Shown: piece by piece, positions 5,416 to 55,260 of the stretch
How the letters are laid out: each line of letters opens with the position of its first letter
Numbering within the stretch: the first letter of the stretch is position 1
DNA from: Squalus acanthias
Lineage: Eukaryota
NCBI GenBank assembly: GCA_030390025.1
Contig: CM059432.1
Location: forward strand, 87,732,001-87,796,000
Length of the DNA stretch: 64,000 bases
Reading direction: 5' to 3'
Notes under the pieces: model-generated
The model's input: the letters and a program-made list of their open reading frames with translations, nothing else
What the model was told of the DNA's origin: nothing
The model's database searches: none
Made by a program: the position numbers and the translations under genes

Positions 5416-5469
5416 TGGGGCCCCTCCCCACAATATGTATATAGGCCCTGCAATCAATTGAGGGACTAA

Positions 5470-22264: not shown

Positions 22265-22282
22265 TTCTCCCCCCCCAAAAGA

Positions 22283-25200
22283 TTAGGAGGCCGGGATGCT
22301 CCCTCCATTTCGTAGCCGCCGGACGAGGGAGAGCCGCACCCGTTTGGGTTCTCGTAGCGGTAGAGGGCCCCTAGCCCGTTTACCCGCCGCGGGCCGTGGA
22401 CCAGAGTCCGAGTGATCCAGCCCGCTCTGTGAGGGGTCAGGACGATCCTGACTGTGTACTGGTGCCCGAACGGGTGTCGGGCAGGGCTGTGGCAGATCCG
22501 TTTCCGAGCGTATGGTACGGGGTGGATCGTGGCTGCGCGTGCGAGCCCCGACGGGCTCATAGTCAGTCTGCCCCAGGTCGGCACGCTGGAGTGAGGTACC
22601 AGCCGGCGTCAGATCCAGATCGTGATGAGAGGCACCTGGCGAGCCCAGAGATGTGCCTGGTACAATATCATACCCTGGTGTCCCTCTATGTTTCGGCGGG
22701 CAGGGAGCCAGATCCCGCAATGACACGGTAGATTCCCGACCGTCAGGATACCGAATATAGGCGTAGGTAGGGTTGACGTCAGTGAGCTCAACCTCATCTA
22801 CCAGGGGGTCATTCTTGGACGCCCGGACATATCTTCGGAGTAGCACTGGTCCCGGTGCAGTCAGCCACGACGGGAGAGATATCCCATAGGATGAGCGACG
22901 CTGAAATCGGAAGAACCGTTCATGAGGCGTCGTATTTGTGGCGGTCGAAAGGAGGGACCGTGTGGAGTGTAATGCGTCTGGAAGTACTGCTTCCCATTGC
23001 TGGTTGGGTAGGCCCCGAGATCTCAAAGCCAGACGTACCGCATTCCAGATGATAGCGTTAAAACGCTCGACTTGCCCATTCCCGACCGGATGATAAGGCG
23101 TCGTTCTGCTGGCAGCAATACCCCGTTCCGAGAGATAGGCCTTGAGTTCTCCTGACATAAAAGAAGGGCCCCGATCCGAATGAACATAGGATGCCATGCC
23201 ACAGAAAGCAAATACCTGCTCAAGGCAGCTGATAACCGTGGTCGTCAGCATATTGGGGCAGGGAAAGGCAAACGGAAAACGGGAATACTCATCGACCATG
23301 GTCAATAGATAAGTGTTGCGAGTTGAAGAGGGCAACGGCCCCTTAAAATCGATGCTAAGCCGTTGCATTGGCTGGGTCGCATGTATGAGTATACCACCCG
23401 AGGGGCGGAAAAACTGAGGTTTCAATTCCGCACAGACTCTGCAGTCCGAGCACATCTTCTTTACATCCCCGGTAGAGAATGGGAGATTTCGGGACCGCAC
23501 GAAGTGTAGCATGCGAGTAACGCCCGGATGACACAACCCATCATGGATGTCTACGAGCGTAGAGGGTGCCATGGCGGAGCAGAATGCTCGTGTGAGGGTA
23601 TCCGGAGCCACATTCTCCTTGCCAGGTCGATAGTGGATGGTGTAACCAAAAGAGGCCAATTCCAGCCGCCAAAGCTGGATTTTATTATTTTTAATTTTGG
23701 TCCGTTTTCGATTATCGAGCATGAAGGCGACCGATCGCTGGTCCGTGATTAAGGTAAAGTGCTGGCGAGCTAGGAGATGAGTCCACTTCCGTACTGCCTC
23801 TATGATGGCTGTAGCTTCTTTCTCGACTGGAGGATAATGTAGCTCAGCCCCTTGAAAAGTCCTGGACAAAAATGCCACCGGACGACCTTCCTGATTCAGA
23901 GTGGCCGAGATCGCCACCTCCGAGGCATCACTCTCAACAACAAAAGGAAGACTCTCATCGATGGAGTGAAGAGCTGCTTTCTCCAACTGTTTTTTCAGGA
24001 GGTTAAAGGCTGCAACAGCCGCTGTGTCTAGTGGGAATGTGCTGGCCTTCAGTAGAGGTTGGATTCGGTCCGAGAAGTTAGGAATCCATTTAGCATAGTA
24101 TGCAAACAGGCCGAGGGCCCGGCGCAAGGAGGCCGGATTCTTAGGTGGCGGGAGTTCTTGGAGTGGGCGAAGCCTTTCAGGGTCAGGTTTAATGATGCCA
24201 TTGCCCACACAATAGCCAAGGATGTTGATGGTTGGTTGTGACTCAATGGATTTAGCCGCATTTAATGTCAAATTACGGTGCTGGAGTGCATCCCAAAATC
24301 GTTGGAGATTGGCGTCATGTTCCCGCTGATTGCGACCTGCGACAGTAATATTGTCCAGATAAGGAAACGTATCCTTCAAGTCTTCCTGTTTGACCAGGTC
24401 ATCCATTGCTCGCTGGAAGACAGCCACTCCATTAGTGACCCCAAAGGGGAGGCGACGAAATTGATACAGCCGTCCATTGGCTTCAAAGGCCGTATACTGC
24501 TTGTCTGAGACCTTCAAGGGTACCTGATGATAGGCACTTTTCAGATCATATGTTGAGAACACCGTGTACTCAGCCAGTTTATTAACCATATCATCGATGC
24601 GCGGCAATGGGTATGCGTCCAAGTCCGTATATTGATTGATGGTCTGTGAATAGTCAATGCACAGCCGTTTCTTGTGAGGTTGTAGAGGGTTCTTAACAAT
24701 AACGACCTGGGCACGCCATGGCGACGAACAAGGCTCGATGATATCCTCTGCTAAAAGCCGAGAAATCTCAGCCGCAATAAAAGACTGGTCTTCCTGACTG
24801 AAACGTCGTGACTTTGTTATAATCGGTTTGCATCGAGGAGGGATACTGGTAAACAGTGAGGGTTCATCCAGTGAAGCTGCTGACAATGCACAGAACGGTA
24901 ATCGAGGTCGTATATTAGAAATAGTGAGTTCAGGTTTGGATCCGCCGAACTCAATGGTGAGCTTCTTATGCTGCTTTTGAAAATCCAGCCCTAAGATAAG
25001 ATCACTACATAAGTCCTTGAGCACCGAAAGCCGGGTGGAGGGATACCTGCGACCATTAAGTGTTATTTCAACCATACAAAAGCCAGAAATTCTGGTATTA
25101 AGTGATGACTGAGCCATCGCAATTGCCTGGTCCGATGGGAAAACATGTAGCTTTAACTCTGCAACAATCTGTTCCCTAATGAAACTATCAGTGCTACCTG

Positions 25201-26239
25201 AGTCAATTAAGGCATCTAAAGTATGTCCATTAATTGATGCTTTTGTAGCTGCATGGAATAGGTTCTGAGGACAAGCAGCTGTAATTGGTGTCGTTGCACA
25301 AAGAGTGGCTGAAACTCTAGGTGTGTTTCTTCGAGAGAAAACCCGAGAGGAAGCACGATAGATTTTAGCCGGAACATCTTGATAGGCCCTTACCGGGGCA
25401 GTTCGGTAGGACTTAGCTTGATAAGCCCTCGTAGAGGCTCTTGATAGGCAAACCTTTGCGAAATGACCCTTTTTGTTGCAATGACTGCAAAACGCATTGC
25501 GAGCAGGGCAGAATTTCCGAGGGTGAAACTCATCACCACAAAAGAAGCATTTCTTAGATTGCCAAGAGGCTGCCACAGTGGGGTCATCATCCTCTTCATC
25601 AGTGAAGTCATCAGATTGATCGTCAGGGATAAAGTCCTCCCTAATAGAGTTCACCTGTGGCCTCTTAAATTGCCTGACTGTAGTTAAGGCAGCAGACCGA
25701 GGTCTGGGCACTGTATAAAGGTCTGCATTTCTTTTTGCCAGATCTAGAGAGCAAGCCATGTCATAAGCTCTCTGAAGCTCAAGTGTCTTACTTTCCAGTA
25801 GACGCTGGCGTATAAATGGGGAGGCAAGCCCGCAGATGAAAGCATCACGGATCATTTCTTCACGGTACAGCTCAGCTGAGGCCGCCTGAAAGTTACAGTC
25901 CATACTGAGTCTGTGAAGCTCTTGGAGGAATTTATCAATGGATTCCTCCGGCCCTTGTTGGGCTGTAGCTAGTAGATGTCTGGCATAGACCTCATTCGGT
26001 GTCTTAGTATATAGTCTTTTAAGCGTCCGAATTGCCTCCTCGTAACTGCCCCATTCCTCAACATACTGAAATACATTCGGAGTGACACAGTTGATGAGTA
26101 TCCGCAACTTTGTGTCATCATCAGCCTTGCAATATTCGAGAAAATTGTCAAACGTGCGATACCAGTGTTTCCACACCTTACCGGCTGCTGGGGTGTTTGG
26201 GTCCAAGTCAAGACGCGATGGTTTAAGGATGTTTTCCAT
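22283..26239 (-). CDS. Gag-Pol polyprotein (gag zinc knuckles, protease, RT, RNase H, integrase), 1318 aa
   Basis: CFFCGDEFHPRKFC and CSHCNKKGHFAKVC knuckles; LIDSGS protease; RLCIDY, DLKSAYHQV, LPFGV, YLDN RT; SDASEV RNase H; HDGLCH..CSDCRVC plus IDFKGP/HSDRG/GQVERFN integrase, in Gypsy domain order. Confidence 0.96.
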   Translation of the reverse strand: MENILKPSRLDLDPNTPAAGKVWKHWYRTFDNFLEYCKADDDTKLRILINCVTPNVFQYVEEWGSYEEAIRTLKRLYTKTPNEVYARHLLATAQQGPEESIDKFLQELHRLSMDCNFQAASAELYREEMIRDAFICGLASPFIRQRLLESKTLELQRAYDMACSLDLAKRNADLYTVPRPRSAALTTVRQFKRPQVNSIREDFIPDDQSDDFTDEEDDDPTVAASWQSKKCFFCGDEFHPRKFCPARNAFCSHCNKKGHFAKVCLSRASTRAYQAKSYRTAPVRAYQDVPAKIYRASSRVFSRRNTPRVSATLCATTPITAACPQNLFHAATKASINGHTLDALIDSGSTDSFIREQIVAELKLHVFPSDQAIAMAQSSLNTRISGFCMVEITLNGRRYPSTRLSVLKDLCSDLILGLDFQKQHKKLTIEFGGSKPELTISNIRPRLPFCALSAASLDEPSLFTSIPPRCKPIITKSRRFSQEDQSFIAAEISRLLAEDIIEPCSSPWRAQVVIVKNPLQPHKKRLCIDYSQTINQYTDLDAYPLPRIDDMVNKLAEYTVFSTYDLKSAYHQVPLKVSDKQYTAFEANGRLYQFRRLPFGVTNGVAVFQRAMDDLVKQEDLKDTFPYLDNITVAGRNQREHDANLQRFWDALQHRNLTLNAAKSIESQPTINILGYCVGNGIIKPDPERLRPLQELPPPKNPASLRRALGLFAYYAKWIPNFSDRIQPLLKASTFPLDTAAVAAFNLLKKQLEKAALHSIDESLPFVVESDASEVAISATLNQEGRPVAFLSRTFQGAELHYPPVEKEATAIIEAVRKWTHLLARQHFTLITDQRSVAFMLDNRKRTKIKNNKIQLWRLELASFGYTIHYRPGKENVAPDTLTRAFCSAMAPSTLVDIHDGLCHPGVTRMLHFVRSRNLPFSTGDVKKMCSDCRVCAELKPQFFRPSGGILIHATQPMQRLSIDFKGPLPSSTRNTYLLTMVDEYSRFPFAFPCPNMLTTTVISCLEQVFAFCGMASYVHSDRGPSFMSGELKAYLSERGIAASRTTPYHPVGNGQVERFNAIIWNAVRLALRSRGLPNQQWEAVLPDALHSTRSLLSTATNTTPHERFFRFQRRSSYGISLPSWLTAPGPVLLRRYVRASKNDPLVDEVELTDVNPTYAYIRYPDGRESTVSLRDLAPCPPKHRGTPGYDIVPGTSLGSPGASHHDLDLTPAGTSLQRADLGQTDYEPVGARTRSHDPPRTIRSETDLPQPCPTPVRAPVHSQDRPDPSQSGLDHSDSGPRPAAGKRARGPLPLREPKRVRLSLVRRLRNGGSIPAS

Positions 26240-26305
26240 GATGGGTGATTCCCTGGATCCTTAGTTCCGAGTTCGTCCAAAAAGTTTGAGTGCGAAGTTT
26301 TTCAA

Positions 26306-26316
26306 AGTTGATTAAA
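26306..26316 (-). promoter_or_regulatory. Putative self-priming primer-binding site
   Basis: Minus-strand TTTAATCAACT lies 1 nt after the 5' LTR and is the exact complement of LTR-internal AGTTGATTAAA (26371-26361). There is no TGG tRNA-type PBS. Confidence 0.8.
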
Positions 26317-26317
26317 T

Positions 26318-26511
26318 TGTCGTAAGAATGAGCCTTACGCGTGGTGAACTTAAAGTAAGCTTTAATCAACTAAAAAGGTGCTACATACAAAAGAGGTCTT
26401 ACTCTATGCCTCTCCAGGATCCAACTGCTCAGTCCAGTATTTATCCTGGACTAATCACAGGAAGTGATGCAATAAAGTTCGAGTCACAGGAAGCTGTATT
26501 GTGTTACCACA
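26318..26511 (-). repeat. 5' LTR of the Gypsy element
   Basis: Identical by eye to 22071-22264. Confidence 0.96.
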
Positions 26512-30673: not shown

Positions 30674-30900
30674 GAAACAACAACAGAAAACGCTGGAAAA
30701 ACTCAGCAGGCCAGGCAACATCCGTGGAGAGAGGAACGGAGTTAACGTTTCAGGTCGAAACCCTTCGTCTGATGAAGGGTTTCGACCTGAAACGTTAACT
30801 CTGTTTCTCTCTCCACGGATGTTGCCTGGCCTGCTGAGTTTTTCCAGCGTTTTCTGTTGTTGTTTCAATTTTCCAGCATCTGCAGTATTTTGCTATCGTA
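30674..30900. mobile_element. Head-to-head Penelope terminal fragments forming a 193-bp palindrome (30674-30866) with a hammerhead core
   Basis: 96-bp arms around T30770 with 3 mismatches. Sequence matches the Penelope terminus at 18609-18706. CTGATGA...GAAAC lies at the centre. Confidence 0.88.
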
Positions 30901-31112: not shown

Positions 31113-32802
31113 CTGTGATTTTAAGTGCTATTATTTTGAGTCTATTCTGTGTTACTGAGCCAAGATTACATTTAAGCACAGATTAATCTATGCTCAAATG
31201 TATGGATCCTAATAGAATATTTTCTGGTGTAAATTTGGCAAAAGTTGTTTTACTTATAAACTGTAAACCTCTTTCAAGATTGTATCGGTTGTGAGAAAAA
31301 ATGATTACCTCAGTGTTTAAACCATTCCCTCTGTTCTTAGGTTTATGGGAAAATAAATCTCAAATGATTGACTTTGACTAGTGGATTACATAGGTGCAAT
31401 AACATCTGTGATTTCTGTATTGTTGCAAAACACTTGGTTAAACACTGATGTAGCTGAGTATTTTTCTGAAAATGAACCCCTGGGGATAGAGGGAATGTCA
31501 CGCAATCACTTATGTAGGCAAGAACAATTCATCTGAACCAGCACAGCAAGAGCTATCACCTTATCACAGCAGGGACATCAGCAGGAACTGCTTCTTTAAT
31601 GCTTCAGACAAAAGCCAGATGTGTAATTTCTTCATCTGTTGACCAGCAACTAATGGGAAAGTCAAAGGATTATTTGTGTTTAGGTTAATTACAAAGAACT
31701 TGCATGAGTCAAATGAATAGTAATCTCCTAATGAAATACAACTTCTTTTAGAATACCAAACTTAGTACCAGCAGCGTCACAAATGATCTTTCATGTGGTC
31801 ACTGTGGAGGTTGTTTGTTATAGCAATGGACTGTGACTGAAAGCATCGTGCATCTAGTATTCCTATTTCGTGGCACAAAACAATCTGGATATCTGCCATC
31901 TGTGTTACAGCAGATGGTAGTAATGGATGCTCTGTGTGTATGGCTCTGCTTAGTTTGTCAAGTACTGAGTGAGTCAGAGCAATCAAGCCTCCCTTTTTAA
32001 GTACTGTTACACTAGCCAGTGTTACTAAATAGAAGATGAAAGCCAAGGAAGAGCCTTTTGCTTTGTATACCCAGTGAAGTAAGAGAAAGTGTTAAATCTT
32101 CCAAATTAAATAATGCACATTCAGGGAGACAGTTAAAAGTTTACTGTAGAAAAGCAATTGCTAAGGTTATTCTTTAAGAGTGTATTTTCATGTTTGTCAA
32201 TATGAGGGATATGAATGCATGATTTTGCACTGTTAATTCTCATTGTATGTAGTATCAGAGTCAACAGGAGCAGCAACAGCAGCACCAGAAACAACCTGCT
32301 GCTCACAGACCTGCAGCTCAACAGGAGAAAGGGGATCAGCAGAGAGGTGCAGCTCCAGGAGGCCATACACAGGGTCCACAGGCAGAGGATAAGCTTCCTC
32401 GACATGTCGGAACACCAGTGTCTCAGGAGGTTCAGGGTGTCGCGTCAGGTGGTGGCAGACATTTGCAGCCTGTTGGAACAAGACCTGCTGCCAGCTGGAC
32501 CTGGTGGCCACACTATACCAGTGGTTGTCAACATCACCACCGCCCTCAACTTTTTTGCCTCTGGATCCTTCCAGGGCTCTGCCAGAGAAATTTGCAGGAT
32601 CTTGCAGTCGGTGGCACACAAATGCATGAGACAGGTGACTTATGGCTTGTTTGCCAGGGCCGCCAATTATGTCAACTTTGCCTGTGATGATGCCAGTCAG
32701 AATGAGCGGGCGATTGGGTTTGTGGCTCTGGCTGGCTTCCCACAGGTGCAGGGCAACCATAGATCACTCAGGATTATTCATCAACCGTAAGGCCTTCCAC
32801 TC

Positions 32803-34858
32803 AACAACTAACGGGTGGAGGAGGCTCCATGAACATCCCCATCCTCAATGATGGCGGAGCCCAGCACATGAGTGCAAAAGACAAGGCCGAAGCATTCACA
32901 ACCACCTTCAGCCAGAAGTGGATGATCCATCTCGGCCTCCTCCTGAGGTCTCCACTATCACAGAAGCCAGTCTTCAGCCAATTCGATTCACTCCACGTCT
33001 TATCAGGAAAAGGCTGAGTGCACTGGATACAGCAAAGGCTATGAGCCCCGACAACAACCCGGCTGTCGTGCTGAAGACTTGTGCTCCAGAACTAGGCACA
33101 CCTCTAGCCAAGCTGTTCCAGTACAAATACAACACTGGCATCTACCCGACAATGTGGAAAACTGCCCAGGTATGTCCCGTCCACAAAAAGCAGGACAAAT
33201 CCAACCCAGCCAATTACCGCCCCATCAGTCTACTCTCAATCATCAGCAAAGTGATGGAAGATGTTGTTGACAGTGCTATCAAGCGGCCCTTACTCACTTA
33301 TAACCTGCTCACTGATGCTCAGTTTGGGTTTCGCCAAGACCACTCGGCTCCAGACCTCATTGCAGCCTTGGTCCAAACATGGACAAAAGAGTTGAATTCC
33401 AAATATGAGGTGAGAGTGACTGCCCTTGACATCAAGGCAGCATTTGACTGAGTGTAGCATCAAGGAGCTTCAGTAAAACTGAAGTCAATGGGAATCAGGG
33501 GGAAAACTCTCCACTGGCTGGAGTCATGCCTAGCCCAAAGGAAGATGGTTGTGGTTGTTGGAGGCCATCACCTCAGCCCCAGGACATTGCTGCAGGAGTT
33601 TCTTAGGGCAATATCTTAGGCCCAACCATATTCAACTGCTTCGTCAATGACCTTCCCCCCATCATAAGGTCAGAAGTGGGGATGTTCGCTGATGACTGCA
33701 CAGTGTTCAGTGTTCAGACCTTGACGACATTCAGGCTTGGGTTAATAAGTGTCAAGTAACATTCGCGCCACACAAGTGCCAGGCAATGACTATCTCCAAC
33801 AAGAGAGAGTCTAACCACCACCCCTTGACATTCAACGGAATTACCATCGCCGAATCCCCCACCATCAACATGCTGGGGATCATCATTGACCAGAAACTTA
33901 ACTGACCAGCCACATAAATACTGTGGCGACAAGAGAAGGTATTCTGCGGCGAGTGACTCACCTCCTGACTCCCCAAAGCCTTTCCACCATCTACAAGACA
34001 CAAGTCAGAAGCGTGATGGAATACTCTCCACTTGCCTGGATGAGTGCAGTTCCAACAACACTCAAGGGGGGAAAAATTGGGTCGCACCCCCTTTGGGGCG
34101 CTAACTTATTAAAGGGAAGGGGCCTTGCGCAGCGCAACCCGGGGCCCAGCTAAGCCACCAGGGATCGGAATGCCGGCAAAAGAGCCTGGCACTCAAGAGA
34201 AGTGCGGGGGTCACAGACTGCAGCCGGCACCCCGCGCGGGGGCTGCACAGAAGGCCGGGGACAGCAACGGGGGCAGGTGCTAGCAGGCGGCCAGCAACAA
34301 AACTGGCCGCCCGGCACCTCCCCTTTAATTTGCGCCACCCCGGCCGCAGGTATCCCCCCCTGACCCTGTAGGACATAGCGTCCGGCGGTAAGTCAGGGGG
34401 CGCTACTGAAGATCGCAGCTGGGGCGTGAGCAGGGCGCCGTGCACGATGATGATGTCATCGCCGGAGGCGCAGCACCGTGGGGCGCTAACAGTTACCGCC
34501 GCCGCTAACCTCCCACTGAATTTCACGGGAGGTGTTGGCGGTGCCGCGCCCAGGCGCTAGTTGCTTTGTGCCCCATTACCGCCCTCTTAGGGTGCTAACG
34601 GGAGGCGCAAATCAACTGAATTTTTCCCCCAAGAAGTTCGACACCACCCAGGACACCATCCATCACCTTAAAAATTCACTCCTTCAACCACTGCTGCACC
34701 ATGGCTGCAGTGTGTACCAGCCATATGGGAGTACCTTCATTACATGGACTGCAGCTGTTCAAGAAGGCAGCTCACCATTTCCTTCCCAAGAGCAATTAGG
34801 GATGGGCAATAAATGCTGGCATTGCCAGTGACGGCCACATTCCATGAAAGATAAAAAA
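32803..34858 (+). mobile_element. LINE-B, 5'-truncated, interrupted by a MITE
   Basis: NYRPISLLSIISKVME, QFGFRQDHS, ALDIKAAFD, MFADD; 3' end agggatgggcaataaatgctgg...ataaaaaa. Confidence 0.9.
34067..34630 (-). mobile_element. Harbinger MITE (564 bp)
   Basis: TIRs GGGGGAAAAATT / AATTTTTCCCCC and TSD AAG. The empty site restores LINE-B ctc aag aag ttc gac acc (LKKxDT). Confidence 0.92.
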
Positions 34859-35733
34859 CCTCCATCAATGTGCAGCTGGTGTGCAACCACAGAAGGATAT
34901 TTATGTACGGTTTGCACAAGATTCCCAGGCAACTGCCATGATGATTTCATCCTGTGGCCGTCCACCCTCACTGATCTCTTCGCACCTCGAGGCTGGCTGC
35001 TCGGAGACAAGGGATACCTGCTTAAAATGTGGCTGATGACATCCCTCAGAAACCCAAGGAATAAGGCCCATGAATGATACAATGAAAGACATATGAGTGC
35101 CAGATGTGTCATCGAACAAGCCATCGGCATGCTGAAGATGCGCTTCAGATGCCTGGACAGATCTGGAAGTGCCCGTCAGTTCACACCAGCCAGGGTCTCC
35201 TGAATGGTTGTGGTGTGCTGCACTCTGCACAACATTGCGCAGCAGCAAGGTTTGGACCGACAGAAGGAACAAGATGCAGAGCACAGAGCCTCTTCAGAGG
35301 ATTCCGAGGAGGAGAAAGATGAGAAGGCGGAAGGTGATGAGGGCAATGCACCACCAGTGGCGCACATTGCTGCCTGGGATGCCCTAATTATTGTGAGGTT
35401 CACTTAGGTTCCACCAGTACATCCATCTAACAACCACATGCAAAAGTCACTTTTACCCACCACCTCCCCCCTGCCCCATCCCGCCCCGATGCCACTAACA
35501 CAGAGTAGTGCTGGAAACAACCAAGCCTCCCTTTCACAGACCCCCATTGCTCGGCGTCAATTCATGTCTTCCCATTCATCATCACACAACTGAAAAGGCC
35601 ACTTTCCAGCCAGCAACCAAGAATGGACAAGACGGGAAAGTGGTGCAAAAGAATAATGTTTATGTGTTTCAAATAGACAACAGAAACTTAATATAACAAT
35701 GTGCAAGACACCCATGTACATACCCTTGTGCAA

Positions 35734-37677: not shown

Positions 37678-38579
37678 ATGGCAGGAGAGCTCCGCCCCGT
37701 GATATGCTCCTCCTGCTATATGTGGGAAATCAGGGACACTTCCTGTGTCCCTGACGACCATTTGTGTGGGAAGTGTATCCAGCTGCAGCTACTGATAGAC
37801 CGCATTGCGGCTCTGGAGCTGCAGATGGATGCATATTGGAGCATTCGCAGGTAAAGGGTGTACAGGCAGGAAGTGAATGGGTGACCACCAGGCAGAGTAA
37901 GGGGTGCAGGCAGGTAGTGCAAGGGTCCCCTGTGGCCATCCCCCTCTCAAACAGATATACCACTTTGGATACTGTTGGGGGGGATGACTTATCAGGGGAA
38001 GGCAGCAGCAGCCAACTTCCTGGCACCATGGGTGGCTCTGCTGCACAGGCTGGGAGGAAAAAGTGTGGAAGAGCTATAGTGATAGGGGACTCAATTGTAA
38101 GGGGAATAGATAGGCGTTTCTGCGGCCACAAACGAGACTCCAGGATGGTGTGTTGCCTCCCTGGTGCAAGGGTCAAGGATGTCTCGGAGCGGCTACAGAA
38201 CATTTTGGAGGGGGAGGGCGAACAGCCAGTTGTCATGGTGCACATAGGCACCAACGATACAGGTAAAAAATGGGATAAGGTCCTAAAAGCAGAATATCGG
38301 GAGTTAGGAGGTAAATTAAAAAATAGGACCTCAAAGGTAGTAATCTCAGGATTGCTACCAGTGCCACGTGCTAGTCAGAGTAGAAATAGGAGGCTATTTC
38401 AAATGAATACGTGGCTAGAGGAATGGTGCAAGGGGGAGGGATTCAAATTCCTTGGACATTGGAACCGGTTCTGGGGGAGGTGGGACCAGTACAAACGGGA
38501 CGGTCTGCACCTGGGCAGGGCCGGGACCGATGTCCTAGGGGGAGTGTTTGCTAGTGCTGTTGGGGAGGGTTTAAACTAA
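37678..38579 (+). pseudogene. CR1 ORF1 (Zn finger/leucine zipper + SGNH esterase), internal deletion/frameshift at ~37850
   Basis: MAGELRPVICSSC...CGKCIQLQLL, then IGDSIVR, PGA, HIGTND and DGLHL esterase blocks. Confidence 0.88.
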
Positions 38580-39073
38580 AGTGGCAGGGGGTTGGAACCT
38601 GAGCAGGGAGACAGAGGAAAGGGAAACAAGGATAAAAGCAAAAGACAGGAAGGAGAAAAACAAAAGTAGAAGGCAAAGAACTCAACGGTTTAAATCAAAC
38701 ATGGTTACAGTAAATAATAATTCATATAGGTCTGAGAGCATTAAAAAAACAAACCTGAAGGCTTTGGGGGAAAAATTCAGTTGGTTGCGCCTCCCGTTAG
38801 CGCCTTAAGAGGGCGCTAATGGGGCGCAAAGCCACTAGCGCCCGGGCGCAGCGATGTTTGCGCCGCTCGGGAACTTAACTAGACATTGTGCGGCGGCGCT
38901 AAACTTTACCGCCGCGACCACCTGCGCGCGCAGATTGTGACGTCATTCCATGGTGCAACGCCCTTGTGGCGCCCCGGAGCGGAAATTGAGTGGCGCCCCC
39001 TGCCTTACCGCCTGGCGCATCCAACGACCGGAAGACTGGAACGCTATCAATCGCTGTGGGGCTGGGGGGGGGC

Positions 39074-39083
39074 GCTATTTAAA
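39074..39083 (+). promoter_or_regulatory. Candidate TATA-like element upstream of the Harbinger transposase
   Basis: gctatttaaag lies ~200 bp upstream of the ATG. A similar motif precedes the transposases at ~14835, ~50470 (minus) and ~63727. Confidence 0.45.
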
Positions 39084-39277
39084 GGGGGCCTCTTCCTGTC
39101 TTTTTCTGTGGTTGACATTTTTGCACCACTCGTTCTGAGAGAGAGAGAGAGATTCGGAGAGAGAGAAAGAGAGACTTCTGCATTGAGTCAACGCTGTGTG
39201 AGGTAGTTTTGCCTACTGATCCTAACTTCGCTGCTACTTTGGTTGCTGTCCTTCATAACTTTGCTTGCAAAGAGACT

Positions 39278-40438
39278 ATGGGGGCTGCACTGATTGGGGG
39301 CGTCGTCCTGCTCCAGCTGAATCGGAGGACACAGAGACGCAGAGAGAGAGTGGCAATGATGGCCAGACGGAGGAGGGCCAACAGGCGTATGTACAGGAGA
39401 GCTTACCCTCCCAGGGTATATCGTGAACAGCTCTCCTACATTCATATGTCTGAGGAGCTGTGTTTGCGAAGGCTGCGATTCAGCAAGGAGGTGGTCACTG
39501 AGCTCTGCCACCTGCTGCAGCCAGATCTGCAGCCTCAACTGAGGTCCAGGACGTCTCTGTCGGTGGCAGTGAAGGTCACAGTGGCTCTCAACTTCTATGC
39601 TACTGGCTCATTTCAAGCTGCTGCTGGGGACCTCGCCAATATCTCCCAGTTCGCGGTGCATTGCTGCATCCAGCAGGTCACAAATGCCCTCTTTAAAAGG
39701 AGACGAGAGTTCATCTCTTTCCCCATGACCCCAGACAAGCAGCGTGACCGCGCTCTGGGCTTTGCGAGGATAGCGGGCTTCCCCATGGTGCAGGGCGCCA
39801 TTGACTGCACGCATGTGGCTTTGCGTGCTCCACATGAGAATGCCGAGGAATTCCAGAACAGAAAGGGGTTCCATTCCTTGAATGTTCAGTTGGTCTGTGA
39901 CCACAGACAGCTGATACTAGCTGTCAATGCCCACTATCCTGGCAGCTGCCACGATGCTTTCATCCTGCGCCAGACTACTGTGGCAGAACTTTTCGAGGCA
40001 CCGCATCAGCCAGTTGGTTGGCTTCTCGGGGACAAGGGGTATCCATTGAGCACCTGGCTGATGACACCGCTCCGTACGCCCAACACCCCTGCTGAGCTGC
40101 GGTACAACGAGAGCCATCAAGCTACCAGGAACATAATTGAGCGCACAATCGGCGTGCTGAAGCAACGGTTCCGCTGTCTCGACCATTCTGGAGGAGCCCT
40201 GCAGTACTCGCCTGAGCGAGTATCCAACTTCGTAGTTGTGTGCTGCATGTTGCATAACATGGCAATCGTCAGGACCCAGCCAATGCCACCAGGCCTTGGA
40301 GCACCACCAGAGGAGGAGGAGGAAGAGGAGGAAGAGGACGAGGAGGATGATCATCAGCAGCACCAAGGCAGGAGGGCGGCCCACAGTGGTGAAACTGCAA
40401 GGGCCGTCCGTCAACGGCTGATAGCAAGCCGCTTCTAG
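39278..40438 (+). CDS. Harbinger DDE transposase (HARBI1-like), 386 aa
   Basis: Uninterrupted ORF from ATG 39278 with catalytic motifs GAIDCTH, LLGDKGY and IIERTIGVLKQRF, plus an acidic C-terminal tract. Confidence 0.94.
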   Translation: MGAALIGGVVLLQLNRRTQRRRERVAMMARRRRANRRMYRRAYPPRVYREQLSYIHMSEELCLRRLRFSKEVVTELCHLLQPDLQPQLRSRTSLSVAVKVTVALNFYATGSFQAAAGDLANISQFAVHCCIQQVTNALFKRRREFISFPMTPDKQRDRALGFARIAGFPMVQGAIDCTHVALRAPHENAEEFQNRKGFHSLNVQLVCDHRQLILAVNAHYPGSCHDAFILRQTTVAELFEAPHQPVGWLLGDKGYPLSTWLMTPLRTPNTPAELRYNESHQATRNIIERTIGVLKQRFRCLDHSGGALQYSPERVSNFVVVCCMLHNMAIVRTQPMPPGLGAPPEEEEEEEEEDEEDDHQQHQGRRAAHSGETARAVRQRLIASRF

Positions 40439-40750
40439 GGCCCCTGCTGTGGAAATGGCTTCTGCCATTGCTAACAACATCAATGAACCCAGCACGCAAC
40501 CCCTAAGCCGGCCAAGGCACCAATGATTCCAAACACCAAACATGTATATTTTGAATACAAAAACTTATTTATTTTACAAACTCTGTGTGTGTCATTTCCT
40601 CATGACAAACTCATAGAAATAAACACAAAAAAACAGTCATTAACATAACTGGTTCTCACAACCTGGAGATAATGTCCAAAACACTAGACAAAAGTTGGAC
40701 CACGAACCTCGGCCTTTAATAAAAAAATGACCAGCATTTTGTCACACCTC

Positions 40751-42624
40751 CTACTTTTTGCCCTTCGAGGGTGATCTCCTTCCCTTGCGCACTTCCCCCC
40801 TTCTAACCCTACTGCTCCTCCGTAATGGGACCTCAGTGGCTGCAGCAAGGCTGGTGGAAGGCTGCTGATCGTCAGACCCTGACACTGCAGATGCCCCTGA
40901 AGGACGGCCTCGACCACTTCTGGGCCTGGAGGGCCCGGCTGCAGACTGCACCAACTCTGCATGGGCGGCAGCAGTCTGTCCTACAGGCGGTGGCAAGTGC
41001 AGTGGAGAAGTGACAGTGTTGGCAGCAGGAATGCTGTCATCGTGAGAGAGGACAGCAACACCCTGCTCGCCCGACACACTGGCACTCCCACGGGGCAGCA
41101 CTTCAGCATCCGGAGCAATCTGCTGGAGCACAGATTGCTGGCCTGCTGCGGCGCGGTGAGAGCCCCGGGGACATGTGAACGAACCATCGAGGTTGGCAGC
41201 AGTCAGTGCTCGCGTGGCCTCAATCTGAGTCTGCATGAGAGCAGTCAGAGATGGGATCACGGCAGTCAGTGACTGAATTGCAGCACTAAGCGTTAGTGTG
41301 GCATCCGCCTGTGCTACAGCGAAGTGCTCCACACTCCTTGCCAGTGACTCAATGCATTCGGGCACCCTTCCCACTGCACCCATGAGCTCAGTGTGCATGC
41401 CCACCGCCTGGGTGTTCATTTCTGCGATCAGCCGCTCCTCCTCTGCGTCCATTGCAGTAGGAGTCGCTGGCATACTCTCCCTCTGGGGAGAAGGCCCCCG
41501 TTCTTCCCTACCCCCATGGCGTTGCTGCAGCCCGCTGGGTCCTGGAGCTTCACCCTCATCAGACCCTTCCCCCCTGCTCCCCTCCAGGGAAGGCGTGTTC
41601 CCAGTGTCGGCATGGGCTTCCTCGGGAGAGGGTGGCACTGATGCTCCGGCTTCCTCTTCCTCCTCGGCTGCAGCTTCACTCCCACTGGCAGCTTCAGGGC
41701 CCGTCTCCTCAGCTGGTGAATCACCATCTGAAAACAGGGAGGTACAAGAGTGGCTTTAGCGTGAGGACAGGGTGGCAGTAAGGGAGGAATAAGTGCAGCG
41801 AGTTAGCAAGTTGGATTGAAAGTGTCAAAGGCTGGTGTTGTGAGGGACAAGTGGAAGGACAGAGGACAAAAAGGTGATGACCTTACCATTGCTGTCCAGA
41901 ACGGGGTCGGCGTCTCCAGTGGCGACGGGACCGATCACCCGGCTTGCCACAATCCTGTGGACGCGCTCCTCAAGATCGCTGAGGGGTTGCAGCTGAGGCC
42001 GCCCTCCACCTGTCCGTTGCTGCTGTCTCCTATTATGCGCCAGCTTGGCCTGCAAGTAAAAGGACAGCATCTGAGTAAATATACAGCCATGGTCTTGCCT
42101 GATGTGCCTCCCATAGGTGAATAGCCCTTACTGTATGCAGCCATGGTCTTGCCTGATGTGCCTCCCATAGGTGAATAGCCCTTACTGTATGCAGCCATGG
42201 TCTTGCCTGATGTGCCTCCCATAGGTGAATAGCCCTTACTGTATGCAAAGTGTGGAATGTGTGTGTGTGTTTCATGAAAGGGCCATAGGTGTTGGATGAG
42301 TGTTGTGCATTGGGGTTTTAAGACCCTCTGCCCATAGAGTGAGGTTGAGATGGAGGGATGGAGAGGTATTGAGAAAAAGCCACTCACCCTGACGACCCGA
42401 GTGAGGTCGTTGAACTTTTTGCCGCATTGAACATGGGTCCTGGGCACCATGCTCCTGGAGGAGACGCTCTGAGCCACCTCCCTCCACACTCTTCTGTACT
42501 CGCGTGGCAAAGGCCTCCTGCCACTCTCAGGGAAGAGTATACATCTTCTGCGCTCCACCGCACCAACCAGAGCATCCAAGGCCCGCTCGGTGAAGCGCTG
42601 AGCTCGTTCTCTCACCCTCTCCAT
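40751..42624 (-). CDS. Harbinger Myb/SANT (trihelix) partner protein, 3 exons: 42624-42388, 42049-41887, 41727-40751; 458 aa
   Basis: Exon 1 RAQRFTERALDALV...WREVAQSV...RTHVQCGKKFNDL. Canonical splice sites AGG|GTGAGT, TTGCAG|, G|GTAAG and TTTCAG|. 237+163+977 = 1377 nt, in frame with no internal stop. Exon 2 has RTGGG. Confidence 0.85.
42084..42245. repeat. 3 x 54-bp tandem repeat in intron 1 of the partner gene
   Basis: Unit cagccatggtcttgcctgatgtgcctcccataggtgaatagcccttactgtatg at 42084, 42138 and 42192. Copy 1 has a single unit (~17832). Confidence 0.95.
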
Positions 42625-42983
42625 CCTTGGCAGCAAAATGGATTCACAGGTCTCTCCAGGCCGAGATTCAAGGCTGCAATGAGCAGGGTGTGGCTGGGGA
42701 GCAAGTTGGCCCCCCCGCTTTAAGAACTGGCCGGCGCCAGTGTGTCTGTGTTCCCTCGCTAACTGGCAGCACCTGCGCTGCGCTCGCGCGCTGAGTTAGC
42801 GCCTCACTGCTCGGCCTTTGCGCCTTAAGACAGCTGTGCAGCGCCTGATTTAGCGCTCCACTCACCTCCCGGGGCGGTAAAAGTGAAGTTTCCAGTCAGT
42901 GGCGATAATTAGCGCCAGGCGCTAATTTTTGCGTCCAGACGATATTTGCGCCCCAAACGGGGCGCGACCTAATTTTTCCCCCT

Positions 42984-45781
42984 TTGTGTCTTAATGCAAG
43001 GAGCATTCGGAACAAGGTGGATGAATTAGCTGCGCAAATAGAGGTAAATGAATACGATTTGATTGGGATTACAGAAACATGGCTCCAGGGTGGCCAAGGC
43101 TGGGAACTCAACATCCAGGGGTATTCAATATTTAGGAAAGATAGGCAAAAAAGAAAGGGAGGTGGAGTAGCATTGCTGGTTAAAGAGGGGATTAACACAA
43201 TTGAAAGGAAGGATAGTAACTCTGATGATGTGGAATCTGTATGGGTAGAACTGAAAAATAACAAGGGGCAGAAAACGTTAGTGGGAGTGGTATATAGACC
43301 TCCAAACAGTAATACAGAGGTTGCGGACGGCATTAAAAGGGAAATTAGAGAAGCATGCAGTAAGGGCACAGCAGTCATCATGGGTGACTTTAATTTACAT
43401 ATAGATTGGGCTAACCAAATTAGTAAAAATACTGTGGAGGAGGAATTCCTAGAATGTTTACGGGATGGTTTTCTGGAACAATATGTCGAGGAACCAACCA
43501 GAGATCAGGCCATCTTAGACTGGGTATTATGTAACGAGAAAGGATTAATTAGCAATCTTGTTGTACGAGGCCCCTTGGGTCAGAGTGATCATAATATGAT
43601 AGAATTCTTCATTAGGATGGAGAGTGAAGTAGTTGAATCAGTGACTCGGGTCCTGAATTTAAATAAAGGAAACTACGATGGTATGAGACGCGAATTGGGT
43701 AGGATTGATTGGGGAATGTCACTCAAAGGGTTGACGGTGGATAGGCAATGGCAAACATTCAAAGACTGCATGGATGAACTACAGAATTTGTTCATCCCAG
43801 TGTGGCATAAGAATAAAACAAAAAGGGTGACTCAACCATGGCTAATAAGGGAAATTAGGGATAGCATAAGATCCAAGGAGAGGGCATATAAATTGGCCAG
43901 AAAAAGCGTTAACCCTGAGGATTGGGAGCAGTTTAGGATTCAACAAAGGAGGACAAAGGGATTAATTAAGAAGAGGAAAATAGAATATGAAAGTAAGCTT
44001 GTTGGGAACATAAAATCTGACTGTAAGAGCTTTTATAGATATGTGAAGAGAAAAAGATTAGTGAAATCAAGTGTAGGTCCCTTGCAGTCAGAAGCGGGGG
44101 AAGTTATAATGGGGAACAAAGAAATGGCAGACCAATTAAATACATACTTTGGTTCTGTCTTCACAAAGGAGGACACAAATAACCTCCCAGAGATGTTGGA
44201 GAACATACAGTCTGATGAAAGGGAGGAACTGAAAGAAATCAGTATTTGCAGGAAAATGGTGTTAGGAAAATTGATGGGATTGAAGGCCGATAAATCCCTA
44301 GGGCCTGATAATCTACATCCTAGGGTACTTAAGGAAGTGGCCCTAGAAATAGTAGATGCATTGCTGATCATCTTCCAACATTTGATGGAATCTGGAACTG
44401 TACCCATGGATTGGAGGGTAGCTAATGTTACCCCACTATTCAAAAAGGGTGGTAAAGAGAAAACGGGGAATTACAGACCGGTAAGCCTGACATCGGTAGT
44501 GGGGAAAATGCTAGAGTCCATTATAAAGGATGTAATAGCTGAGCACTTGAAAAACAGTGACAGGATCAGACAAAGTCAACATGGATTTACAAAAGGTAAA
44601 TCGTGCTTGACTAATCTACTGGAATTTTTGAGGATGTAACTGGGAAAATAGATAAGGGAGAACCAGTAGATGTGGTGTATTTGGACTTTCAAAAGGCTTT
44701 CGATAAGGTCCCGCATAAGAGATTAGTGTGTAAAGTTAAGGCACATGGGATTGGGGGCAAGGTATTGACTTGGATAGAGAACTGGTTGGCGGACAGAAAG
44801 CAGAGAGTAGGAATTAATGGGTCTTTTTCCGAGTGGCAGGCAGTGACTAGTGGGGTACCGCAGGGATCGGTCCTTGGACCCCAGCTATTCACAATATACA
44901 TTAATGATCTAGATAAGGGAACTAAATGTAATATCTCCAAGTTTGTAGATGACACAAAGCTGGGTGGGCGTGTATGCTGCGAGGAGGATACCGAGAAACT
45001 CCAGGATGATTTGGACAGGTTGGGTGAGTGGGTAGAAGCGTGGCAGATGCGATATAATGTGGATAAATGCGAGGTTATCCACTTTGGTGTCAAAAACAGA
45101 AAGGCAGACTATTATCTGAATGGCAATAGATTGGGAGAAGGGGAAGTGCAACGAGACCTGGGTGTCCTTGTGCACCAGTCGCTGAAGGTAAGCATGCAGG
45201 TGCAGCAGGCGGTGAAGAAGGCAAATGGTATGTTGGCCTTCATAGCGAGAGGGTTTGAGTATAGGAACAGGGATGTCCTGCTGCAGTTGTACAGGGCCTT
45301 GGTGAGACCACACCTTGAGTACTGTGTGCAGTTTTGGTCGCCTTATCTGAGGAAGGATGTTCTTGCCATGGAAGGAGTTCAGCGAAGATTCACAAGGCTG
45401 ATACCTGGGATGGCAGGAATGATGTATGAAGAGAGATTGGGTCGATTGGGCTTATACTCGCTGGAGTATAGAAGAATGAGAGGGGAGCTCATCGAAACAT
45501 ATAAAATTCTGACAGGTCTGGACAAACTAGATGCAGGAAGAATGTTCCCGATGGTCGGAGAGTCCAGAACCAGGGGTCATAATCTAAGGATAAGGGGTAA
45601 GCCATTTAGGACAGAAATGAGGAAGAATTTCTTCACCCAGAGAGTGGTGAACCTGTAGAATTCTCTACCACAGAAGGTAGTTGAGGCCAAGCCATTAAAT
45701 ATATTCAAGAATGAGTTAGATATATTTCTTAAAGCTAAAAGTATCAAGGGATATGGGGAGAAGGCAGGTGCAGGGTACTGA
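42984..45781 (+). pseudogene. CR1 ORF2 (APE endonuclease + RT), frameshift at ~44630 and stop at 45656
   Basis: NARSIRNK, ITETWL, YRPP, GDFN and SDH APE motifs; RT motifs in ORF 44672-45658. Confidence 0.92.
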
Positions 45782-46224
45782 GTTTGGATGATCAGCCATG
45801 ATCTCATCGAATGGTGGAGCAGGCTCGAGGGGCCGAATGGCCTACTCCTGCTCCTTTCTTCTATGTTTCTATGTTTCTATAATCTATAATGAAGTGTGCT
45901 TCTCAGAAAGTTTATTTTTAATCTAGACTTTTTGCTTAAGTGTTTCATTTATTATGTAAACTACAGCAGCACCATAATAAAAATTTTAAAAAGTCAGGCA
46001 AACATATACCTTTAGTTAATGGGACCACTCAGTTGCTGCAATCAAAATGTGAGTTCCTGACAGTGAACAGACTAAGTGGCTTTCACTGTACAAGAAATTA
46101 CCAAGTGCATACTGAGAACAATTGTTTGCCATGTGCCATCATTTTAAGTGATGAAAGATTTAGCAAATTGCAGTATTAAGTAATAGTTAATAAATGGGTG
46201 CAGAAATACACTAGCAAGAGCTGA

Positions 46225-48865: not shown

Positions 48866-50504
48866 TATGTAGCACCTTTCATGTTCCCAGGAGGTCTCAA
48901 AGTGCTTCACAATCAATGAATTACTTTTGAAGTGTAATCATTGTTGTTTATAGGCAAATAATGTAAACTTGCTATATTTTGCACAGCAGACTTGCAACAT
49001 GTGCTACAGTCTTTAGGTAAAATTTGGCAGTGAATTAATATGGAATGTTAAAAATGGGATGATGTGAAACCATTTGGTCTTTATGATTTTTCCTTCTGTT
49101 GTCTCAGTTACACACTTGGAAGAATAAAAATGCAGATAGGCCTGCAGTGTGCAATTGCATATATCTTTTTACTTTTGGCTTTGTGTACATAATCATGAGC
49201 TACAGTCAGTTACTGTACAGAAACTAAACTATTCCATAGAGACAGAGATCAGCTCTAGCCAGGTTAGGAAAGACATCACTTTGTGGAAACATGTGTTGCC
49301 AGGAAACATGGATGTATCCTGTGGAGACAGGGGCCTAGAAATTCGGTTGTGTAGTGCCCATTGCTACGGGTGCCAAATTGGGTCCAAAATGGTGTCCGAG
49401 CAGCGCACGCACACTTCTGCTGCGGGCCACATCGGATGCCATCTTGGTGAGGGCAGTTGGGCAGGCGTTAGGAGCGTGCGCTGGAAGTATGGTAAGTAGG
49501 CAGATCGTGACGTCAATCAGCGTGCAACATGCTGCCCACGTGTGGTTGGGTTGCAGTGCGTAGTCATGAGCCAGGTGGTCAGCAGATAGCCCTTGTCGCC
49601 CAGTAGCCTCTGGTTTGTCGTGGTGGCTCAAAGACTGAGGGAACAGTGGACTGCCAACAGAATAAAAGCTTCATGAATGCTGCCAGGATACTGGGCGTTC
49701 ACCATCATGATGTGCTGAGCATGGTCGCACACCAACTGCACATTCAGCGAGTGGTAACCTTTGCGGTTGCGGTACATCTCAGCATTTATATACGGCGCCC
49801 ACAAAGCCATGTGCGTACAATCAGTGGCGCCCTGCACCATGGGGAAATCAGCAATCCTGGCAACCCACCATGCATGCTCTGACTGCTTCTCTCTGGGCAG
49901 AGAGAAGAAAATGAAGTCCCCTCTCCTGGCATAAAGAGAGTCTGTCGCCTCTCTTATGCAACCGGGAGATGTTACAGATGTCACCTGCTCCAACCTGGAA
50001 GGATCCCGATGCAAGGAAATTCAGTGCCACGGTCACCTTCACTGTCATTGGCAGCACTGTCCTTGCCCTGGTGTGAGGCTGCAGGTCTAGTTGCAAGGTT
50101 CTGTGAGCACTTCCTTGGTAAATCGCAGACTCCTCACACACTGCTCCTGGCTCAGGCTTATGTAAGAGAATTGCTCTCGGAAGACCCTAGGTGACAAGGC
50201 CTCCTGCCGAGAGTCCTTCTACACCCCCCTCTGTGAGCAGCTTGTCTTCTTCTTCGCTGCCTCTGCTCCATTTCCCTGTCATGCTGCAGGCCAAGGGGGA
50301 TGACAACTAGAGCACCCATGACTGGGAGCAAGTGGTCTGACCAGAACCCTTGAATTCAGAAGCAAGGCCTTCTCCACTTGCAGCACCACTCCCTGTCACC
50401 TCGCCAACTCTAGATAGCTCCAAACAGTTCTATAAACTTACAGTGAACTAACTTTAGAGTGGTTGCTGATTCCTTTAAATATTGCTGGTGGGAGGTCCTT
50501 GCTT

Positions 50505-54574: not shown

Positions 54575-55260
54575 ATTCATCTTCCCATGGATCCTAGGAG
54601 CCAGTGTAAAAGGGCTGTGCATTTTGCAGCCATTGCAGGGTTCCACATAGTGCCATTGACTGCACACCCGTGACTGCACCCCGTGTCCAGCACCTTCATC
54701 AACCATAAAGGTTCACTCCCATAATGTCCAGTTGGTATGTAACCACCGGCAACGGTTCATGCAGGTGTGCGCCTGTTTTCCAGGCAGCTCTCACGATGCC
54801 TACATCATACAGCAGTCCAGCATTCTCCCTTTCTTTGACAATGAGAAACATGTGACAGGCTGGCTGCTTGGAGAAAAGGGATATTCCCTCCAGACTTAGC
54901 TGATGACCCCACTCCAAAACCCAGAGACGCCTACGGACATCAGATAGAACTACAGTCCCGACTCAAACGGAGCCATCATTCAACAGTTGATAGGAGGCCT
55001 TAAACAAGAATTCAGCTGACTGGATCGGTCTGGATGTTCCCTATGGTACAGTCCTGAGAAAGTGTTGAGGATAGTAAAGGTGGTGTGCTGCCTTCTGCAC
55101 ATCAGGAGAGCTAATATTGCCAACAGATTAAGAGGACCATCTGCCACATCAAGAGGAGGAAGCTGATGAGCCAAAGGATGCAGCTGCAGTGGGAGGTTTC
55201 CAACATCAGGCTGCAGCCAGAGCTATACACCAGAAACTCATTGCACATTGCTTCACCTAA
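54575..55260 (+). pseudogene. Degenerate Harbinger transposase
   Basis: IFPMD...FAAIAGF...IDCT...[28 protein letters not shown]...GWLLGEKG...LMTPLQNP...VVCCLLH. Confidence 0.85.

Follow-up and report, generated by a model that had tools for sequence, protein, structure and literature searches.

At the centre of this locus lies a Harbinger transposon, which occupies positions 38766-42982 of the window (the whole 64-kb stretch analysed here) and is nested in a CR1 LINE. Its terminal inverted repeats (TIRs) are formed by the 12-mer GGGGGAAAAATT, found as a perfect inversion at 38766-38777 (plus strand) and 42971-42982 (minus strand), with pairing lost from base 13. By itself a 12-bp inverted match is modest support for the ends of an element: when the two end regions were shuffled 500 times, 8 of the shuffles contained one. 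The call is strengthened by the flanking TTT target-site duplication (TSD; 38763-38765 and 42983-42985), by the repair of the host reading frame, and by two further elements in the window with identical ends. Deleting the element together with one copy of the TSD restores the frame of CR1 ORF2, near the start of which integration took place, and the duplicated TTT sits within the motif A-N-N-Y-[TSD]-R-N-N-T. The 5' part of the host LINE (37755-38762, plus strand) holds the ORF1 esterase region (PF13472, E 3e-12) and the first codons of ORF2, which begins at an ATG at 38701. Its 3' part (42986-45880, plus strand) encodes the endonuclease and reverse transcriptase; here the frame shifts once, near 44630, and a stop codon falls at 45656-45658. 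The first-pass annotation had noted the matching TIRs, which the TSD and the frame restoration now back. The element it described is real, but the limits it gave, 38763-42985, include both TTT duplications.

Next to the TIRs, the words GCGCC and GGCGC are clustered at both ends, with 14 in the left 355 bp and 9 in the right 343 bp compared with only 5 in the 3519 bp of the interior. The left subterminal region (38778-39120) is rich in GC and CpG, with a CpG observed/expected ratio of 1.1 vs 0.47 in the interior; its counterpart on the right spans 42640-42970. The clustered words are predicted, and likely, Myb-binding sites. Between the ends lie two convergent genes, separated by a 3' region (40439-40750) with candidate poly(A)-signal hexamers at 40618 and 40718 on the plus strand and at 40568 and 40715 on the minus strand.

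The plus-strand gene (39278-40438, from the ATG at 39278 to the stop) encodes a DDE transposase of 386 amino acids, with the open frame that had been annotated, and matches PF13359 at an E value of 2e-40 (138 bits against a cut-off of 24.8). The AlphaFold2 model of the protein has a mean pLDDT of 89. D176, D252 and E288, taken here as the catalytic triad of the DDE_Tnp_4 family, are the residues carried by most homologues (96/117, 93/114 and 76/117, respectively). Residues 132 and 193 carry changes private to this copy, both in variable columns (Arg in 62/113 and 30/112). With its catalytic residues kept, the transposase may still be working. The nearest relatives all come from sharks and rays, the best being 67% identical. 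They are chondrichthyan models labelled 'putative nuclease HARBI1' (Pristiophorus, Narcine, Mobula, Heptranchias and others; ~45-67% identity), several of which share a Met-Gly-Ala N-terminus with the focal transposase; one of them, P0008, also has the junction of Myb exons 1 and 2 in register. However, these models were named automatically and are mostly degenerate copies from other families, and none is at least 90% identical to the focal protein.

The minus-strand gene encodes a Myb-like protein of 458 amino acids in three exons (42388-42624, 41887-42049 and 40751-41727), separated by GT-AG introns of 338 nt (42050-42387, phase 0) and 159 nt (41728-41886, phase 1). This agrees with the first-pass gene model in both its junction coordinates and its phases. 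Once spliced, the product can be aligned with the homologue P0124 from residue 5 to residue 455 (37.6% identity, E 5e-90). Exon 1 encodes the proposed SANT/trihelix N-terminus, which matches PF13873 (E 1e-8; 35.4 bits, cut-off 21.7) and has three helices. Its best fold matches are Zeste and GT-1, with TM scores of 0.69-0.71 and E values of 0.36-0.46; fold searches returned zero matches with E <= 0.001, and sequence searches of the PDB found no true homologue of either. Homologues of exon 1 were gathered with HMMER (63 proteins), while a word-based search found it in 0 of 229 candidates. Exon 3 carries an acidic linker (24% D/E over residues 134-227), a helical segment, and a basic tail (43% K/R over residues 431-458) followed by the stop; the acidic and basic parts had been described correctly. 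An amphipathic, heptad-like segment had also been proposed, and in the best register of residues 226-315 the a/d positions are 73% LIVMFA (54% LIVMF), a weak pattern. Complex prediction for transposase residues 25-340 with this helical segment, run without alignments and with an uncertain partner fold, scored 0.00 and yielded no verdict. Within intron 1, a 54-bp unit is repeated in 3.1 near-identical copies (42080-42247; internal units 98-100% alike), compared with one in the sister copy.

Evidence for splicing was sought in assembled contigs from two RNA-like runs (X8 and X11, presumed RNA) and a DNA run (X1). The exact intron 2 joint, 41887/41727, is present in one contig of X8 and two of X11 and in none of X1, with unspliced contigs exceeding spliced ones by about 2:1. 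Of the two junctions proposed at first pass this one is borne out, whereas the intron 1 joint, 42388/42049, is absent among the 15 of 67 joints listed. Moreover, unspliced contigs span the intron 1 donor in both RNA-like runs, and depth in intron 1 is at least that in exon 1 (for example, 383 at 42331 vs 131 at 42423 in X11). These observations would suit a wrong model of intron 1, with most transcripts retaining the intron or starting within it and the 458-aa protein rare. We regard this as very unlikely. The read-through frame aligns to P0124 only as far as residue 77, the passage from exon 1 to exon 2 is gap-free against 53 of the 56 homologues spanning residues 74-85, and the splice sites are kept in the sister copy. 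Assembled contigs also end at nearby variants, and the unspliced excess is found at intron 2 too. For organism G, the raw poly(A) reads of run X21 matched only at a GA microsatellite and were uninformative; runs X19 and X20 (word shares 0.05-0.06) were left out of all comparisons.

Where does the element belong? It has four features by which PHIS, or Harbinger-like, elements are recognised: a DDE_Tnp_4 transposase with its triad, a Myb/SANT gene, TIRs, and a 3-bp TSD. The last of these is found in all three window elements of the family (TTT, TAA and CTT in element orientation), and the perfect 12-bp TIR fits the PHIS pattern, in which G or A usually comes first. The TIR is shorter than the 25-50 bp described as usual for Harbingers (PMC9179366). 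With the NuwaII and PIF/Harbinger groups as described, the element shares DDE and Myb/SANT ORFs, TIRs starting with GG, and a length in the range ~4.1-4.7 kb (PMC4482050). As in the NuwaII target C-TNA-G, the focal site has C and G flanking the TSD (PMC4482050). However, the three sites of the shark family (C-TTT-G, T-TAA-G and T-CTT-G) include no complete match to this target (0/3), only TAA agrees with the TWA TSD of the strict PIF/Harbinger group (1/3, from three sites only; Han et al., 2015), and in all the TSDs fit TWA or TNA in one of three cases. The 12-bp TIR is absent from the three supplementary text files of PMC4482050.

Among vertebrates, the zebrafish Harbinger3_DR was rebuilt from a consensus (Sinzelle et al., 2008, as cited in PMC2836001 and PMC9392472), and in the model described for it the Myb protein binds both the TIRs and the transposase and brings about nuclear import of the latter (PMC2836001, PMC9392472). 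The two systems share DDE transposase and Myb-like genes and a 3-bp TSD (PMC2836001, PMC9392472); Harbinger3_DR is a consensus reconstruction, while the shark element is a single genomic copy with both frames open. By its description, Harbinger-Snek of sea kraits is likewise a two-gene vertebrate Harbinger, with 269 intact copies in L. colubrina and one in L. laticaudata (PMC8437027). RNA reads cover both of its genes, and present-day activity is suggested only (PMC8437027). It differs in its reptile host and its origin by horizontal transfer, and the available text makes no mention of a helix-3 change of the kind described below (PMC8437027). Since intact, transcribed vertebrate Harbingers have thus already been published, open frames alone come as no surprise. 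Our literature search, which did not reach Sinzelle 2008 and Zhang 2024 (130 transposons), found no natively transposing vertebrate Harbinger, and Harbinger goes without mention in a report on coelacanth polymorphism (PMC4255032).

The open frames and the HARBI1 label of its relatives might also suggest a domesticated, HARBI1/NAIF1-like gene pair with a host function. This we consider the most improbable of readings. Such pairs are single copy, lack TIRs and TSD and keep conserved synteny; this element is multicopy, has both TIRs and a TSD, and interrupts a LINE. In addition, its private changes bear no sign of purifying selection, and the HARBI1 name is an automatic label.

The family is abundant. 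The DNA run has 48,804 contigs matching the stretch, 8,661 at >= 99% identity and 24,655 at < 95%; summed contig depth was kept as depth, without conversion to copy number. Within the window there are eight additional loci with transposase. The sister copy, copy B (14529-18603, plus strand), is ~88% identical, has the TSD TAA, and is broken in both genes. A MITE-like, non-autonomous relative of 564 bp (34067-34630, minus strand) has identical ends and a TSD that reads AAG on the plus strand. Between the focal copy and copy B, dN/dS is 0.40 for the transposase (p 2e-6) and 0.95 for the Myb-like gene (p 0.74), a comparison that does not support selection on the latter, unlike the former. Near-identical sequence is found in runs under six organism labels (word shares 0.58-0.90), a spread suggestive of an older burst within a lineage whose clock runs slowly. 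Shares of 0.86-0.90 were considered as a sign that several individuals carry the insertion, but this was rejected, as the private sites alone predict 0.889. Empty-site contigs are present in X1; the host CR1 is itself multicopy, and these joints were rejected as insertion polymorphism because other CR1 copies yield an identical joint.

How far has the focal copy departed from its family? From a list of 40 of 347 variant sites we considered the 39 inside the element. At 15 of these the focal letter is one that >= 80% of the family depth lacks in each of the three informative runs; at 14 of them copy B carries the family letter. Near-identical X11 contigs cover 1,769 bp, and over this length 7-10 differences, or 0.40-0.57%, can be ascribed to the focal copy. 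At the epaulette-shark mutation rate of 7e-10 per generation (PMC10587355), a rate from another species, this corresponds to ~6-8 million generations (range 3-41). Among the listed sites the private coding changes are five non-synonymous and three synonymous, a ratio that would be compatible with neutral drift. At 0.4-0.6% divergence the probability of the frames remaining open is 0.21-0.69 (about 20-70%), and as such survival is expected by chance, open frames are a weak sign of activity.

One of the five amino-acid changes falls at a conserved arginine. Residue 68 of the Myb-like protein (codon at 42423), within helix 3 (residues 64-78), is Gly in the focal copy. Arg occupies this position in 49 of 58 homologues and accounts for 95-99% of family depth; His (4), Lys (2) and Ser (1) also occur among the homologues, and none has Gly. 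Other conserved residues (F11, L19, W47, R62, C67, K69, D73 and R76) are kept; at residue 68 the copy departs from the family at a conserved position. Loss of this Arg probably weakens Myb binding to the element ends; a search of the structural literature on this helix-3 residue found nothing usable. The description 'fully intact' does not survive this comparison: the frames are open, but there are residue-level departures. As for the first-pass proposal of a naturally active element, the two-gene structure and spliced partner stand, while the family comparison speaks against a pristine copy.

The private letters could instead reflect an unsampled young clade, a very recent sub-subfamily from a species or population outside the runs, or assembly errors, in which case the insertion would be recent. 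After discounting the 15 private sites the expected word share is 0.889; the best run reaches 0.90 and none holds the full set, so the focal copy need not be in any run. The likeness of the 54-bp units also fits a recent origin. We nevertheless find it quite unlikely, as an active lineage would hardly fix Gly at a conserved helix-3 Arg; the frameshift and stop in the host CR1 fit an aged locus, yet leave the insertion undated.

A competing view is that both focal proteins are fully competent and the copy a naturally active, autonomous vertebrate Harbinger. There is no damage to either frame, to any of the four splice sites, to either TIR or to the DDE triad, the eight other conserved Myb residues are retained, and intron 2 is spliced in family members in the RNA-like runs. 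Set against this are a Gly that none of the 58 homologues has and a private divergence of ~0.4-0.6%, which disfavours recent copying from this locus. Moreover, no contig in the RNA-like runs is traceable to the focal locus, the dominant ones showing family letters at the private sites. Full competence thus seems unlikely to us.

Instead, we favour, at roughly 60%, a full-length, autonomous-type PHIS element in a cartilaginous-fish genome, one that belongs to a young subfamily within an abundant family, has drifted by ~0.4-0.6% and is probably hypomorphic. A single integration at the start of CR1 ORF2 produced the TTT duplication. On the model of Harbinger3_DR and Ping/Pong, transcription of both convergent genes would be followed by splicing of the Myb-like mRNA, intron 2 as seen in family members and intron 1 as predicted by homology only. 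Helix 3 of the Myb protein would then bind the repeated GC-rich subterminal words, the protein, probably via its basic tail, would take the transposase to the nucleus, and cut-and-paste would be the work of the DDE enzyme. Drift of ~0.4-0.6% would have followed insertion, with the frames remaining open as chance allows. Loss of the helix-3 Arg would probably have reduced end binding, so that by itself the copy is most likely a hypomorph, although mobilisation or complementation in trans would still be open to it. Overall it has the look of an older insertion in good preservation, short of a proven active transposon.

Elasmobranch genome papers list Harbingers merely as a repeat class, as far as their available text goes (PMC8455134, PMC12498223), and a 2022 survey asked that the study of Harbingers be extended to further cartilaginous fish (PMC9179366). 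The focal copy supplies a clean gene model for a shark-like Harbinger family, with one intron confirmed, and illustrates how weakly open frames speak for activity when a lineage has a very slow clock. Contigs ~99% identical to it are plentiful in both RNA-like runs, which marks the subfamily as young and apparently expressed, and because the copy lies within ~1% of these expressed relatives, few changes would be needed for a functional test. It is the subfamily, rather than the focal copy, that merits such an assay; the vertebrate Harbinger assay that our literature search found used a reconstructed element. That the young subfamily is mobile in living sharks, and that native proteins (the focal transposase with its own or a sibling Myb) transpose unreconstructed, is a doubtful prospect. 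If true, it would provide an additional two-component vertebrate system and a tool whose target motif is a degenerate palindrome.

The Harbinger transposon at 38766-42982 spans 4,217 bp between perfect 12-bp terminal inverted repeats (TIRs), with TTT adjoining each end, and lies at the start of ORF2 of a CR1 LINE, which regains an open frame once the element and one TTT are taken out. This CR1 has an esterase-type ORF1 and an endonuclease/reverse transcriptase ORF2; its reading frame shifts once, near 44630, and is interrupted by a stop at 45656-45658. Since a 12-bp inverted match also arose in 8 of 500 shuffles of the end regions, support for the boundaries comes from the target-site duplication (TSD), the frame of the empty site and the occurrence of these ends on two more elements; the boundaries are secure. 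One of the two, a sister element called copy B (14529-18603), is about 88% identical, has the TSD TAA and carries disrupted versions of both genes; the other is MITE-like (34067-34630; 564 bp, TSD AAG). In element orientation the TSDs read TTT, TAA and CTT, and TWA fits one of the three. The pattern A-N-N-Y-[TSD]-R-N-N-T fits the flanks of the three sites, with their different TSDs, at 11 of 12 specified positions (38759-38765/42983-42989, 14522-14528/18604-18610 and 34060-34066/34631-34637).

The plus-strand transposase ORF (39278-40438; 386 aa) matches DDE_Tnp_4 with an E-value of 2e-40, and its start is backed by relatives with Met-Gly-Ala at the same place. When aligned with homologues (120 of 426 search matches), D176, D252 and E288, which we take to be the catalytic triad, match the majority residue (96/117, 93/114 and 76/117, respectively). 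The closest relatives all come from sharks and rays and reach at most 67% identity, which points to a cartilaginous fish as host. Under the scheme outlined in part of PMC4482050, the element is PHIS/Harbinger-like in all four features tested. According to passages of the respective papers, shark repeat annotations include Harbingers (PMC8455134, PMC12498223), a 2022 survey records elephant shark as lacking them and calls for more cartilaginous fish (PMC9179366), 269 intact, transcribed vertebrate copies are published from one sea krait (PMC8437027), and a spontaneous Harbinger insertion is on record in a nematode (PMC13668399). A title-level literature search turned up neither a description of this family nor an assay performed on a native vertebrate Harbinger, although Sinzelle 2008 or Zhang 2024 could bear on the latter.

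The three-exon model proposed for the minus-strand Myb-like partner (42624-42388, 42049-41887 and 41727-40751; phases 0 and 1; 458 aa) was reproduced exactly. Exon 1 matches Myb_DNA-bind_5 and is predicted to fold into helices at 13-25, 40-57 and 64-78, the nearest solved folds being the DNA-binding domains of Zeste and GT-1 (TM 0.69-0.71; E 0.36-0.46, not significant). As a HMMER query it retrieved 63 proteins, one of which aligns with residues 5-455 of the spliced product (37.6%, E 5e-90); when the frame is instead read through intron 1, alignment to this homologue ends at residue 77. The exon 1/exon 2 junction is passed without a gap in 53 of the 56 homologues covering it. The exon 1 frame runs on through intron 1 to a stop at 41935, and retention of the intron would give a 229-aa product, Myb only. 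Intron 1 also holds 3.1 near-identical copies of a 54-bp unit (42080-42247), of which copy B has one.

Contigs from four of 23 sequencing runs were compared with the element, including the DNA run X1 and two runs, X8 and X11, whose RNA nature is a guess. The first-pass annotation had proposed junction reads as a check, and one junction was borne out: an exact skip of 41728-41886 with minus-strand GT-AG borders occurs in one X8 contig (depth 211) and two X11 contigs (depth 90) and has no occurrence in X1. Intron 2 is therefore spliced in family members in these RNA-like runs, with unspliced contigs about twice as deep (409 in X8, 181 in X11). The 42388/42049 joint was not found among the 15 of 67 joints listed, contigs being unable to show absence, and unspliced contigs cross the intron 1 donor in both runs. 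Splicing of intron 1 thus rests on homology, which supports it.

For the reconstructed Harbinger3_DR, the accessible portions of PMC2836001 and PMC9392472 state that both proteins are required and that the Myb-like protein binds the TIRs and the transposase N-terminus and takes the transposase into the nucleus. The words GCGCC/GGCGC, counted 14 times in the left 355 bp, 9 times in the right 343 bp and 5 times in the interior 3,519 bp, are likely binding sites. The basic tail of the Myb protein (43% K/R) would likely act as an import signal, and its helical segment 226-315, whose hydrophobic columns are common to at most 17 homologues, is a likely interaction or oligomer region.

The earlier description of this copy as apparently fully intact is weakened, at the level of residues, by comparison with its family. 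Among 39 variant sites (40 of 347 listed, one in the flank being dropped), 15 carry another letter in at least 80% of the depth in X8, X11 and X1 each, and copy B sides with the family at 14 of these 15. Of these private sites, eight fall in coding sequence. Three are synonymous, and the five non-synonymous ones affect transposase residues 132 and 193, both variable columns among homologues, and Myb residues 68, 174 and 288. At other residues, such as 55, 61 and 157, the transposase differs from distant homologues in ways that it shares with the subfamily, these residues lying within near-identical RNA-run contigs; two more, 236 and 267, were placed neither with the subfamily nor with this copy. 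At Myb residue 68 this copy has Gly, against Arg in 95-99% of the family depth; 58 homologues (E 1e-4 or better) have Arg 49 times, His four times, Lys twice and Gly never, and under a looser cut-off the sole Gly among 61 belongs to a match without the motif. The residue sits in helix 3, presumably the recognition helix of Myb-type folds. Because a basic side chain is lost and a helix-breaking residue gained, Gly68 probably weakens binding to the element ends.

This copy is a new, well-preserved Harbinger, and we read it as probably an older insertion whose DNA-binding partner is weakened, at a probability of about 0.6. That it is naturally active as it stands, as first suggested, draws on its two-gene structure and spliced partner, which held; private drift including Gly68 argues against a pristine copy, and activity ranks lower, as an unlikely reading. 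Six near-identical X11 contigs differ from this copy at 16 positions over 1,769 bp (0.9%), a seventh and eighth (12 and 14 differences) being left out as another subfamily. Seven to ten differences are assigned to this copy (0.40-0.57%), a level at which both frames and the splice sites would still be open with a probability of 0.21-0.69, depending on the assumed indel rate; open frames are thus no sign of selection or activity. On a clock borrowed from epaulette shark (7e-10 per generation, as quoted in part of PMC10587355), this would correspond to some 6-8 million generations (3-41 over the rate's interval). A very recent insertion ranks below an older one and is quite improbable.

A comparison of this copy with copy B finds the transposase under purifying selection (dN/dS 0.40, p 2e-6), with no such sign for the Myb gene (dN/dS 0.95, p 0.74). 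The Myb gene and introns are less diverged than the transposase synonymous sites and the element ends (49/603 Myb four-fold and intron sites differing versus 24/152 transposase four-fold sites, p 0.008; 0.046 without CpG sites), which suggests a mosaic history or constrained introns. On a compared stretch that takes in some 330 bp of the CR1 on its flanks, X1 yields 48,804 contigs, 8,661 at 99% identity or more, 15,488 at 95-99%, 17,938 at 90-95% and 6,717 below 90%. Two X1 contigs run from a right end into a left end across 9 or 17 letters, which points to copies lying in tandem or close together at other places in the genome. Eight other loci in the window resemble the transposase, and the Harbinger superfamily is dense here, with seven transposase relics 38-56% identical to this copy (2650-2994, 5466-5851, 13983-14123, 32317-32784, 34901-35239, 49541-50206 and 54714-55100). 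The window also holds a near-perfect palindrome (30674-30866; 193 bp, 96%), a weaker one (10569-10725; 157 bp) and an LTR retrotransposon (22071-26511), Gypsy-like by eye. The terminal repeats of this retrotransposon show no mismatch across 196 aligned bases, it has a single open frame of 1,325 aa and what seems to be a 5-bp duplication, and it appears to be younger than the Harbinger copy.

Words of the element occur in runs of six organism labels at shares of 0.58-0.90 (about 0.3-1.7% divergence), which fits a burst predating the splits of those lineages, or transfer between them. Two points speak against reading the insertion as older: the highest share, 0.90, matches the fraction left once private sites are discounted (0.889), and no run was shown to contain this insertion. 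The private letters could possibly reflect errors of assembly or a clade of very recent origin from a population that was not sampled. Variants of the dominant X11 contigs are rare in X1 and also present in X8; at 39214 and 39605, variants of dominant RNA-like contigs under two organism labels are very rare in X1. One variant of the dominant X11 contigs alters transposase Gly110, conserved in 98 of 111 homologues, and the most expressed relative may therefore itself be damaged. A single copy or a few, shared and possibly damaged, may dominate expression.
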